Assembly: GCF_003018255.1 (NCBI RefSeq)
Contig: NZ_CP027440.1
DNA: 64,000 nucleotides
From: Escherichia coli
Lineage (GTDB): Bacteria; Pseudomonadota; Gammaproteobacteria; Enterobacterales; Enterobacteriaceae
Direction: 5' to 3' (one strand)
Shown in pieces: positions 1 through 47,437 of the stretch (within the stretch, counting starts at the first letter, position 1; every line of letters begins with the position of its first letter). A program made the translations under genes and the position numbers. Below the pieces are notes generated by a model that had not been told where the DNA came from, did not search any database, and was given only the letters and a program-made list of their open reading frames with translations.

Positions 1-113
1 CGGTCTACGTAGTCATGTCCGGGGAGATAAAGCTGGTCAGAAGGAATAGTCATACAACGGTGCTGTAAAAGGTTGTCGGCGTCTTTGCCAAGCAACTGCG
101 CAATATCTGTCAT
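1..113 (-). CDS. fbaB: Fructose-bisphosphate aldolase class I, N-terminal fragment (gene runs off the window start)
   Basis: Reverse complement of 1..113 translates MTDIAQLLGKDADNLLQHRCMTIPSDQLYLPGHDYVDR, which I recognise as the FbaB N-terminus; ATG is at complement 111..113. Confidence 0.8.
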   Translation of the reverse strand, partial: MTDIAQLLGKDADNLLQHRCMTIPSDQLYLPGHDYVD

Positions 114-369
114 TACTATGCTCCCGTAAATTCCGATTGGATATCGGCTATGGATTGTCCTGGCCCGCCTTTTGCGGGCAATCATAATCCTGGTCGTTAC
201 AGGCGAGTTTTTCCATCTTTTGGATGTTTTTTCAGCGTTTTCTGTTGGCTCGATTCATCAGAAAAAATGTTACCGCGGTCAAGTTTTCACCGCAAAGGTA
301 TTTAAAAGGTATTATTAAATGGTATTGTCATCGCGTACCTTACATTACCTGTCATGAAGGAATTAAAAG

Positions 370-6852: not shown

Positions 6853-6985
6853 TTTGCTCCTGCCATAACGTGAAGAAGCAATGACCTGGTGGTCCGTGAC
6901 TTCCCTACGCTGGCATTATCCAGATCAGGTGATACGGGTATTTCTCAGCCTTCACAAAGAAGGGCACCCCGAGTCGTTTGGTTGC
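6853..6985 (-). promoter_or_regulatory. TPP (THI-box) riboswitch in the thiM leader
   Basis: Minus-strand sequence contains CTGAGAAATACCCGTATCACCTGATCTGGATAATGCCAGCGTAGGGAAGTCACGG, which matches the classical E. coli thiM TPP aptamer, immediately 5' of thiM. Confidence 0.85.
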
Positions 6986-25516: not shown

Positions 25517-25870
25517 ATGATCGTGCAAAAAGAGCTGGTTGCTATTTACGATTATGAGGTCCCTGTACCTGAAGATCCGTTTTCCTTCAGACTTGAGATC
25601 CATAAATGCTCTGAATTATTTACAGGTTCCGTCTATCGACTGGAGCGATTCCGGCTACGTCCAACATTTCATCAACGTGATCGAGAAGATGCTGACCCGC
25701 TAATAAATGATGCGTTGATTTATATAAGAGATGAGTGTATTGATGAGCGGAAATTACGAGGTGAATCACCTGAAACTGTAATAGCAATTTTTAATCGTAA
25801 ACTACAGAATATATTCAACCAACTAATAGAATATTACTTTATTAAAGGGGGAAGCGGTTTTCCCCCTTAG
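25517..25870 (+). CDS. yehK: Small uncharacterised protein
   Basis: 117-aa ORF on the track; true start uncertain (I recall the K-12 product as shorter); stop codon lies inside the hairpin that begins the first zor repeat. Confidence 0.5.
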   Translation: MIVQKELVAIYDYEVPVPEDPFSFRLEIHKCSELFTGSVYRLERFRLRPTFHQRDREDADPLINDALIYIRDECIDERKLRGESPETVIAIFNRKLQNIFNQLIEYYFIKGGSGFPP

Positions 25871-25889
25871 TTGCGTTTCAATTTGCCCA

Positions 25890-25979
25890 TTACTTCAACA
25901 AATCAATCAACCGTAACAGAGCCACTAATAGCTCCAGTACAGCAATGAGCACGGTTAACTTTTGTGTCAGCGTGTCCAT
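25890..25979 (-). CDS. zorO: Type I toxin small hydrophobic peptide, 29 aa (ZorO-like)
   Basis: Minus-strand ATG..TAA encodes MDTLTQKLTVLIAVLELLVALLRLIDLLK; AAGGAG SD 5 nt upstream; long 5' UTR; flanking hairpin terminator; too short for the ORF track. Confidence 0.7.
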   Translation of the reverse strand: MDTLTQKLTVLIAVLELLVALLRLIDLLK

Positions 25980-26217
25980 CCGCTCTCCTTATTAAGGAGC
26001 GCAACACCAGCACCTTACCCTTACACTGCCTGTCGACACTGGTTTACGTTTGTTGAGTCGCCATGTTGCACTCCGGATCAGAGCACTACCTGCGGCACCA
26101 CCCGTCCGGTAGCCAGGACTTGAAATGGGTTCGATCCGGCGCAACTTCCCAACAGTCAGGATTATAAATCTCATTATCTTAATTGCAACACGGTCCAGCG
26201 GTGGTTATAATTCGTTC

Positions 26218-26300
26218 GTTGAGATGCCATGTTGCACTATCAGTAACTTAACATCAAAGTAGTAAATAAAAGAACCTGCCTCACCAGCAGGTTCTTTTAT
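26218..26300 (+). ncRNA. orzO: Divergent antitoxin sRNA (OrzO-like), about 80 nt
   Basis: Consensus-like promoter TTGCAA-17-TATAAT (26183..26211), then a transcript ending at hairpin gaacctgc-ctcaccagc-gcaggttc plus T-run; 5' end gttgagatgccatgttgcact is complementary to the toxin 5' UTR (26053..26073). Confidence 0.6.
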
Positions 26301-26497
26301 TTTCTGCGATCTACTTTCCAGATATTTTTCGCCAATAGCCCACCATAAATATTCACATCCCGGCCAAATAGTACGTTGATTATAAAATCGATGAATTTAT
26401 AAATAAAAATGAGTTATATGATGAATTAATAAAAACAGTAATCATTTTATTAAAGGGGGAAACGGTATTCCCCCTTAGATGCGTTTCAATTTGCCCG

Positions 26498-26587
26498 TTA
26501 CTTCAACAAATCAATCAACCGTAACAGAGCCACTAATAGCTCCAGTACAGCAATGAGCACGGTTAACTTTTGTGTCAGCGTGTCCAT
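26498..26587 (-). CDS. zorP: Type I toxin small hydrophobic peptide, 29 aa, second copy (ZorP-like)
   Basis: Coding sequence identical to copy 1 (same 29-aa peptide), same SD and terminator hairpin. Confidence 0.7.
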   Translation of the reverse strand: MDTLTQKLTVLIAVLELLVALLRLIDLLK

Positions 26588-26825
26588 CCGCTCTCCTTAT
26601 TAAGGAGCGCAACACCAGCACCTTACCCTTACACTGCCTGTCGATACTGGTTTACGTATGTTGGTACGAAACGTTGCTCTCCGGATCAGGGCACCGCCTG
26701 CGGCACCACCCGTCCAGCAGCCAGGACTTAAAATTGGTCCGATCCGGCACAACCTCCCAACGGGCAGGATTATAAATCTCATTCACTGAATTGCAATGGA
26801 GTGTGGATATGGTTATAATTTATTC

Positions 26826-26908
26826 GTTGGTACGAAATGTTGCACAATCAGCAAGTTAGCGTCATTGTAGTAAATAAAAGAACCTGCCTCACCAGCAGGT
26901 TTTTTTAT
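26826..26908 (+). ncRNA. orzP: Divergent antitoxin sRNA, second copy (OrzP-like)
   Basis: Promoter TTGCAA-17-TATAAT (26791..26819); 5' segment gttggtacgaaatgttgcaca is complementary to the copy-2 toxin UTR (26661..26681); same terminator hairpin. Confidence 0.6.
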
Positions 26909-27017
26909 TTACTGTGATCTGCTTTCCAGATATTTTTCGCTCAAACAACTAATGCGGCAAACATTTATTGCGCGTAAAATATCGTTTATTTCATTAATAC
27001 ATTTCAGGGATGAATAT

Positions 27018-47264: not shown

Positions 47265-47437
47265 GATGAGCATTCAGATAGTGGTTCACGCGCACGGGTT
47301 GCGCACCGCCGGAGTAAGGATTTACTGAGGCTAGCGACGCCATCATAACGAGCAAAAAGTGCGATCGTCAAAGAAGAATCGTGAGGAAATGCTGCATTGC
47401 TGACATTTACGCCAGCAATGCAGCGCAAAAGAACTTT

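Follow-up and report, generated by a model that had tools for sequence, protein, structure and literature searches.

The zor-orz type I toxin–antitoxin systems illustrate how a short RNA duplex can decide which antitoxin silences which toxin. For the zorO-orzO pair of EDL933 alone, the toxin has been shown to be harmful on over-expression and to be countered by its cognate sRNA in an RNase III-dependent manner, with OrzO repressing zorO via 18 nt at the sRNA 5′ end (Wen, Won & Fozo 2014, PMC3919570). OrzP, an OrzO homologue, was unable to repress zorO in the same study, in which only the OrzP-on-zorO direction was assayed. Specificity was traced to V1, three nucleotides at +9..+11 that read GAA in OrzO and ACG in OrzP; swapping V1 moves specificity, and a compensatory mutation in zorO restores repression (PMC3919570). 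Repression requires an uninterrupted run of approximately 15 pairs, or 17 pairs interrupted by a single internal mismatch, and engineered OrzO variants with 16 discontinuous pairs, arranged as 5(2)11 and 6(1)10(1), gave no repression even when over-expressed (PMC3919570). The OrzO target falls within the EAP/standby region (+73..+102) of a 174-nt UTR, where OrzO also blocks translation (Wen, Harp & Fozo 2017, PMC5397157). [quoted passage not shown] 2024, PMC11264685); in the literature we searched, orzQ and zorQ are named by this survey alone. The survey also found promoter hexamers conserved in at least 99% of zor/orz loci, described a variable base-pairing region that "may prevent crosstalk", and reported strains that carry orzP only (orphan orzP; PMC11264685).

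Several other type I systems invite comparison. Like zor-orz, tisB-istR1 and shoB-ohsC employ a divergent sRNA with short complementarity far upstream of a sequestered RBS, and in both the mRNA is activated by 5′ processing while the sRNA competes at the standby site (PMC5397157). They belong to another toxin/sRNA family, and as each is present in one copy there are no paralogues to be insulated from one another. The Sib/Ibs and Ldr/Rdl families, for their part, occur as several paralogous toxin/antisense pairs per genome, in which a few variable nucleotides set cognate repression; their antitoxins are cis-encoded, fully complementary antisense RNAs. Orz sRNAs, in contrast, are trans-encoded and pair over only 18–21 nt.

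Here we describe a zor-orz array in a 64-kb window, by which we mean the whole stretch of Escherichia coli DNA that was analyzed. We put at about 85% the probability that the region comprises two tandem zor-orz type I units, copy 1 of the zorQ/orzQ class and copy 2 of the zorO/orzO class, with each sRNA predicted to repress its own toxin alone. The assignment to zor-orz is supported by sequence: both sRNAs match the Rfam family RF02083 (OrzO-P) over the full model length and above the gathering score of 60 (copy 1, 90.2 bits at 26225-26298; copy 2, 88.9 bits at 26833-26906), and both 29-aa ORFs encode MDTLTQKLTVLIAVLELLVALLRLIDLLK, the sequence of the published synthetic ZorO peptide (PMC6669753). 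The copy 1 sRNA also draws a weak, sub-threshold Rfam match to ohsC (35.4 bits versus 50). A search of NCBIfam found no model for the 29-aa Zor toxin, and the RefSeq annotation of the locus contains neither the toxins nor the sRNAs.

The two repeat units are offset by 608 bp. Positions 25833-26132 align with 26441-26740 at 92% identity, and a second segment, 26202-26332, aligns with 26810-26940 at 86%. The array is flanked by a yehK-like gene on one side and yehL on the other, the same chromosomal site as in the O157 lineage and other strains, and the sequence matches E. coli strain 2017.09.02CC at 100% identity. Its features are listed below, with transcript ends placed by homology with published zor-orz and UTR landmarks taken from the published zorO UTR (PMC5397157).

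25845..25868, minus strand: terminator-like hairpin 3′ of the copy 1 toxin ORF (copy 2 counterpart, 26453-26476)
25890..25979, minus strand: copy 1 zor toxin ORF, 29 aa, from the ORF list
25980..26153, minus strand: copy 1 toxin mRNA 5′ UTR, 174 nt, with +1 placed at 26153 by homology
25985-25990, minus strand: copy 1 RBS AAGGAG, mRNA nt 164-169, inside a predicted stem; the ATG is at mRNA nt 175
26052-26081, minus strand: copy 1 EAP/standby region, +73..+102
26052..26072, minus strand: copy 1 antitoxin target site, Q class, mRNA nt 82-102; plus-strand reading GTTGAGTCGCCATGTTGCACT
26161..26211, both strands: copy 1 divergent promoters, from a consensus scan with 10/12 matches each
26161-26166, minus strand: copy 1 zor -10, TATAAT
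26183-26188: copy 1 -35, TTGCAA, palindromic and common to both promoters
26206-26211, plus strand: copy 1 orz -10, TATAAT
26218..26302, plus strand: copy 1 Orz antitoxin sRNA, Q class, with +1 placed from the published numbering (V1 = +9..+11)
26218-26238, plus strand: pairing 5′ end of the copy 1 Orz sRNA
about 26264-26302, plus strand: copy 1 Orz terminator hairpin, predicted fold
26498..26587, minus strand: copy 2 zor toxin ORF, 29-aa ZorO, same as copy 1
26588..26761, minus strand: copy 2 toxin mRNA 5′ UTR, 174 nt, with +1 placed at 26761 by homology
26660..26680, minus strand: copy 2 antitoxin target site, O class; plus-strand reading GTTGGTACGAAACGTTGCTCT
26769..26819, both strands: copy 2 divergent promoters, sharing the -35 TTGCAA at 26791-26796
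26769-26774, minus strand: copy 2 zor -10
26814-26819, plus strand: copy 2 orz -10
26826..26910, plus strand: copy 2 OrzO-type sRNA, with its 18-nt continuous pairing end at 26826-26843
26834-26836, plus strand: copy 2 V1, GAA at +9..+11, as in published OrzO

Both units retain in their sequence the promoters, the 174-nt spacing, the RBS at +164..169, the target at +82..102 and the terminators. The promoters of both genes in each unit are sigma-70-like and are built around a single palindromic -35 TTGCAA, their hexamers being the ones that the survey found so widely conserved (PMC11264685), and the targets sit 73–94 nt upstream of the ATGs. We infer that both units are expressed in the window strain. 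Under the mechanism we propose, each unit would produce the 29-aa membrane toxin ZorO from the minus strand, behind a 174-nt 5′ UTR, and by divergent transcription an Orz sRNA of approximately 85 nt from the plus strand. The Orz 5′ end would then bind the 3′ part of the EAP region in the toxin UTR, inhibiting translation and promoting RNase III-dependent decay, as the literature describes for O. The RBS is where it is expected, and folding predicts it to be paired whatever the class. In the full-length O and P UTRs, nt 1-22 are predicted to pair with nt 74-102, in agreement with the EAP model in the literature (PMC5397157); this fold pairs through the constant flanks of the Orz site and leaves the variable core in an internal loop. 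The predicted minimum free-energy fold of the Q unit UTR differs from this O/P model.

With V1 = GAA at +9..+11 and 18 continuous pairs, including one G·U, copy 2 belongs to the orzO class, and its target and sRNA pairing strings are those of the O unit in an O157-lineage strain (L004) and also those found in Escherichia whittamii. The second unit of L004 joins an ACG sRNA to a T3S toxin, as described for EDL933. This strain serves as our O-P reference because, in O157:H7 strain PV15-279 (L035), approximately 630 bp separate yehK from yehL and only one unit fits; the YehK and YehL proteins of L004 are identical to those of PV15-279. Copy 1 reads GCC at +9..+11, within the core GAGAUGCC. The orzP class is thus ruled out for either copy, V1 being GCC in one and GAA in the other rather than ACG. 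The copy 1 class is that of the first unit in two further strains (L002 and L003), the toxin of L003 carrying the A20S substitution of the "ZorQ" variant, and it is the only common third class, with the sRNA present in 855 genomes. From these sequence comparisons we infer that copy 1 is of the zorQ/orzQ type. Like the published zorQ/orzQ (PMC11264685), it is a complete zor/orz unit outside both the O and the P type; whereas the common toxin of that type is A20S, the copy 1 toxin has the ZorO sequence, without A20S.

The closest described relative of the array as a whole is zorO-orzO/zorP-orzP of EDL933, which it resembles in locus, site, 29-aa toxin, 174-nt UTR, RBS at +164..169, EAP region and divergent sRNA, as well as in the constant flanks of the pairing site and the short specificity stretch between them. 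Three differences stand out. The partner unit in EDL933 is P (V1 = ACG, toxin T3S), whereas the partner here is the third class with core GAGAUGCC; the O unit is last in the window, adjoining yehL, but first in the EDL933-type array; and the two toxins of the window strain are identical, unlike the O/P pair of EDL933. The locus and its specificity principle are already known, from Wen et al. 2014 for O and P and from Shore et al. 2024.

The two copies differ in the pairing segment, though not there alone. Toxin and sRNA are encoded on opposite strands, minus and plus respectively, so identity of target and sRNA on the plus strand amounts to RNA complementarity. The original prediction held that these segments match within each copy and have diverged between copies while the coding sequence stayed identical, and it quoted four 21-mers in evidence. 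All four are present, and the sRNA coordinates (26218-26238 and 26826-26846) are exact; the UTR strings, placed at 26053..26073 and 26661..26681, were set one base too high and actually occupy 26052-26072 and 26660-26680. The pattern itself holds: UTR and sRNA strings differ at 2/21 positions in copy 1 and 3/21 in copy 2, against 6–7/21 across copies, and the toxin coding sequences show 0/90 nt differences. The copy 1 duplex comprises 19 Watson-Crick pairs, one G·U and one mismatch in the pattern 6(1)14, and that of copy 2 comprises 18 Watson-Crick pairs, one G·U and two terminal-side mismatches, the uninterrupted run being 18 pairs long; five mismatches arise in either cross combination. The site is organized as constant flanks, GUUG ... 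AUGUUGCAC, around a variable core at sRNA positions 5-11 that includes the published V1.

Within this core, target and sRNA have acquired the same new bases at positions 5, 6, 10 and 11. The chance of such parallel changes is crudely estimated at P of about 8e-4 (hypergeometric overlap of 0.064 multiplied by (1/3)^4). Divergence across the whole repeat unit is 58/496 (11.7%), compared with 7/21 and 6/21 for the pairing segments. In the 64 kb, the four sites are also the sole occurrences of the motif GTTG-N8-YGTTGC, of which 0.49 are expected; 0/100 shuffles reach four.

The same logic extends across the species and beyond. Pairing strings were drawn from complete E. coli genomes, two other Escherichia species and 19 metagenome contigs, and comprise six distinct cognate duplexes, in which 91.3% of cells are standard pairs. 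The compensatory substitutions anticipated across E. coli loci are indeed there: 5/21 pairs (sRNA positions 5, 6, 9, 10 and 11) are altered on both sides, one-sided changes are G·U-neutral, and position 7 is unpaired in the Q and P classes and in Q2, an sRNA variant from IHE3034. The covariation score is 0.349 versus 0.169 in shuffles, none of 500 of which reach it, and sliding the register lowers the paired share to 29–39%. On both the motif count and the covariation score, a chance origin of the repeats is rejected. No new major class appeared among the 19 metagenome loci scanned.

The specificities also appear to be ancient. Escherichia whittamii carries an O-P array whose pairing strings are the same as in E. 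coli O and P, so the specificity classes must be old. The Q and O specificities are thus old allelic classes that did not diverge in the present genome. An exact-pattern scan of one genome per species returned matches only in E. whittamii and one Escherichia sp., a result that says little on more distant relatives, exact matches being required.

Counts in the wider population show target and antitoxin classes in step, at least for two of the three. We searched 5,426 complete E. coli genomes with class-specific 50-mers. For Q, the UTR target was found in 1097 genomes and the sRNA in a closely matching 1093 (855 plus 238 with Q2); for O, the corresponding counts of 1254 and 1261 agree just as well. 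The slight O sRNA excess fits orphan orzO, as seen in one genome (L006). For P, the sRNA was found in 4696 genomes and the target in 2865, an excess that fits the published orzP-only strains. Each class occupies approximately one place per genome: Q, 857 places in 855 genomes; O, 1261 in 1261; and P, 4700 in 4696.

The order of units is equally regular. A three-unit genome, that of O8:H8 strain 16F5M1D1 (L031), reads Q-O-P, and the arrangements seen, one exception aside, are order-preserving subsets of this series: Q-O in the window and two other genomes (L001, L032), Q-P in L002 and L003, O-P in three (L004, L005 and L010), and further subsets including orzO-only plus P (L006), singles and orzP-only. 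Since the three-unit genome reads Q-O-P, the window's Q-O array is a Q-O-P array minus P. The window's Q-O pair is matched over its whole 1109 bp, at 95% identity or more, in approximately 155 genomes, making it a minority form but not a unique one. This prevalence is drawn from the 155 whole-pair matches and two inspected examples; a junction query for genomes with O last discriminates poorly, as homology reaches position 119 in O-P genomes.

The exception to the array order is the complete genome JNE23-001 (L034), in which Q and O are followed by a rewired unit with a Q-type UTR and orzP. A metagenome contig (L016) likewise carries orzQ, followed by a unit that joins a Q-type UTR to orzP. 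Because this contig was co-assembled it may contain an assembly artefact, and its chimeric unit has no match of at least 99% among complete genomes. In both cases the array itself supplies a cognate OrzQ, which in JNE23-001 lies two units upstream and which, to judge from sequence, could act in trans on the Q-type target.

How, then, should divergence between units be explained? One account holds that pairing within each unit is selected, but that the units came to differ as paralogues drifting neutrally long ago, with insulation as a by-product. Some observations are congenial to it: divergence in the promoter spacers (17/64) and in the body of the sRNA (6/29) is nearly as great as in the pairing segments, the classes are ancient enough to be common to E. 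whittamii, and an orphan orzP without a toxin in about a third of genomes implies that sRNA retention is not always toxin-dependent. Nevertheless, neutral drift sits uneasily with variable positions clustered in a 7-nt core between otherwise invariant flanks, with each class being present about once per genome despite frequent recombination and loss of tandem units, and with the presence of a cognate sRNA elsewhere in the array for both mismatched toxin/sRNA units. We therefore regard neutral divergence as unlikely, though it deserves serious consideration. The evidence supports selection on within-unit pairing, and selection for insulation between units is plausible.

Predicted energies speak to insulation more directly. 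Across all four sRNA-mRNA combinations of the window, cognate duplexes are clearly stronger than non-cognate ones, rather than equal to them. Duplexes of the sRNA 5′ end with the whole UTR reach -34.4 and -31.3 kcal/mol for cognate Q and O, versus -22.5 and -23.4 kcal/mol for the cross pairs; the gain on whole-molecule cofolding (ddG) is -20.3 and -18.2 versus -4.1 and -6.3 kcal/mol. At the site itself, cognate hybridization amounts to -31.6 kcal/mol over 20 pairs in copy 1 and -29.6 kcal/mol over 19 pairs in copy 2. Both cross pairs form 16 pairs with two 2-nt gaps, OrzQ on zorO at -14.0 kcal/mol with a longest run of 7, and OrzO on zorQ at -21.7 kcal/mol with a longest run of 9. When the cost of opening the site is added to hybridization, the cognate Q and O pairs retain -17.3 and -15.8 kcal/mol, whereas OrzQ on zorO comes to +1.0 and OrzO on zorQ to -8.6 kcal/mol. 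For calibration, OrzP on zorO, which fails experimentally, is predicted at -17.2 kcal/mol with 16 pairs. In a 4x4 matrix of Q, O, P and Q2, cognate site energies span -29.6 to -32.3 kcal/mol and cross energies -14.0 to -22.7 kcal/mol with two exceptions, namely Q2 on the Q target, in effect a cognate pair, and Q2 on the P target, at -25.8 kcal/mol.

Neither cross pair of the window reaches the pairing that repression was found to need, 15 continuous pairs or 17 with one mismatch (PMC3919570). On the strength of these models, Q and O would be insulated from each other, and since the core has changed in parallel on both partners, each sRNA should repress its own toxin alone. The original prediction of two orthogonal specificities kept by compensatory change thus finds support in the modeled energies and in covariation, with the qualification that the divergence did not take place in the present genome, the classes being old.

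The asymmetry between cross pairs might be taken to mean that insulation is only partial, with OrzO from copy 2 still dampening the toxin of copy 1 by way of 16 pairs, 9 of them continuous, and the array acting as a partly redundant buffer. OrzO on zorQ is, after all, predicted to bind better than OrzQ on zorO both before and after correction, and somewhat better than the one cross pair known to fail (-21.7 versus -17.2 kcal/mol). Yet OrzO variants with the same number of discontinuous pairs, 5(2)11 and 6(1)10(1), failed even when over-expressed (PMC3919570), and the OrzO-zorQ pairing is broken by two separate 2-nt gaps. Such a buffer consequently seems improbable, and weak repression of zorQ by OrzO at high sRNA levels is best kept as a residual uncertainty of the modeling. 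It is more improbable still, indeed barely credible, that the match within each unit is kept not by selection on pairing but by gene conversion between two 21-bp direct repeats 166 bp apart: target and sRNA 5′ end do read alike on the plus strand and so are direct DNA repeats, but 21 bp is very short for homologous conversion, and homogenization is rejected by class-specific differences at positions 7, 8, 13, 19 and 21, G·U-neutral or at a fixed mismatch position, that persist stably across strains and species. Compensatory mutagenesis, moreover, identifies pairing as functionally decisive (PMC3919570).

Selected pairing within two units predicted to be insulated remains our preferred reading, with parallel core changes on both partners as the step that would confine each sRNA to its own toxin. 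The system illustrates how a few nucleotides in an 18–21-nt RNA duplex can insulate paralogous toxin–antitoxin pairs, and its value in this respect is confirmatory. To the established picture the present survey makes modest additions: matching target and sRNA class counts across 5,426 genomes, a Q-O-P order of units, the conservation of O and P in E. whittamii, and naturally rewired units. A broader view, plausible but tentative, is that the site is the remnant of an ordered Q-O-P array of three mutually insulated specificities older than the split of Escherichia species, from which strains keep order-preserving subsets. The conserved property may then be that no class of toxin UTR lacks a cognate sRNA within the array, and not that each toxin lies beside its antitoxin, as the rewired units of JNE23-001 and L016 illustrate. 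If this is true, selection would remove recombinants whose toxin has lost its cover, and the array would resist its own decay.

The zor toxin and Orz antitoxin genes of each unit are transcribed divergently, with one palindromic -35 hexamer common to both promoters. The elements concerned lie in the window as follows:

26183-26188, palindromic -35 hexamer TTGCAA common to the divergent zor and orz promoters, copy 1
26791-26796, the same hexamer, copy 2
26132-26153, toxin mRNA 5' end (minus strand), with the antitoxin-site region at 26052-26081, copy 1
26740-26761, toxin mRNA 5' end (minus strand), with the antitoxin-site region at 26660-26689, copy 2

TATAAT -10 boxes flank TTGCAA on both sides in each unit, at spacings of 16 and 17 bp, and the zor transcript, like that of orz, starts with GUUG. 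The promoter and 5' ends of each unit look like an inverted duplication. Because the two promoters have a single -35 hexamer in common, zor and orz should compete for RNA polymerase.

The toxin mRNA opens with ~22 nt that are similar to the constant segments of the sRNA (GUUGG...GUUGY). In O and P units, this stretch is predicted to pair at the antitoxin's own site, so that the variable core lies in an internal loop, in agreement with the published model for the EAP region of zorO. By this predicted pairing, the 5' end of the toxin mRNA would mimic the antitoxin intramolecularly in these two classes; for the Q unit, the predicted MFE departs from the O and P pattern.

Two further RNA elements in the window are ordinary features with no relation to the zor-orz finding:

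6885-6981, minus strand, TPP riboswitch (RF00059, 71.2 bits)
47269-47349, minus strand, Peptidase-S11 RNA motif (RF03039, 72.8 bits)

Within the sRNA-target duplex, sRNA position 7 (window position 26224 with 26058) is paired in the O class only. It is unpaired in the cognate duplexes of Q, Q2 and P (A.A, G.A and A.G), a conserved internal mismatch of the three classes. The Q2 sRNA, GUUGGGGCGCCAUGUUGCAUA (at 1881 in L007, the IHE3034 locus), is partnered with a Q-type target and is present in 238 genomes, ATCC 11775 among them. Among the off-diagonal combinations in the energy matrix, none is predicted to pair more strongly than Q2 with the P target (-25.8 kcal/mol, 18 pairs), and Q2 may thus be less well insulated from P.

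E. coli JNE23-001 (L034, NZ_AP045064.1, 1857-2270) has a three-unit array. Its third unit places orzP beside a Q-type toxin target, which forms 16 pairs with the mismatched neighboring sRNA versus 20 with the OrzQ of unit 1. Judged by this complementarity, the unit appears to have been rewired in nature to an antitoxin supplied in trans. A contig from a bat-gut metagenome co-assembly (L016, 1-700) carries a mosaic unit whose CDS, promoter and sRNA are P-like and whose UTR segment is Q-like, preceded by an orzQ gene. This mosaic is either a gene-conversion product like that of JNE23-001 or the outcome of tandem repeats collapsed in assembly.

That rewired third unit is also the exception to array order: E. 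coli O8:H8 16F5M1D1 (L031, 1564-3200) holds three units in the order Q-O-P, and the sampled arrangements are otherwise order-preserving subsets of it. In E. coli O157:H7 PV15-279 (L035), the yehK-yehL gap is only ~630 bp, space for one unit; two are described for O157:H7 EDL933, which suggests unit loss within this lineage. In the window, the gene flanking the array differs in length:

25517-25870, yehK-like ORF of 117 aa, annotated "hypothetical protein" (WP_000636928.1)

Most strains encode a yehK of 105-106 aa. The longer ORF of the window extends into the hairpin at 25845-25868, the terminator of the first toxin gene. This long form occurs in Q-O and Q-O-P genomes and was not seen in the Q-P genomes examined.

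A 2014 statement held that the locus was not found outside E. coli and Shigella. Escherichia whittamii Sa2BVA5 (L010, 11926-12950) nevertheless carries an O-P array, in which the pairing strings of both target and sRNA are the same as those of E. coli. This identity indicates that the zor-orz locus, together with its specificity classes, is not confined to E. coli and Shigella.
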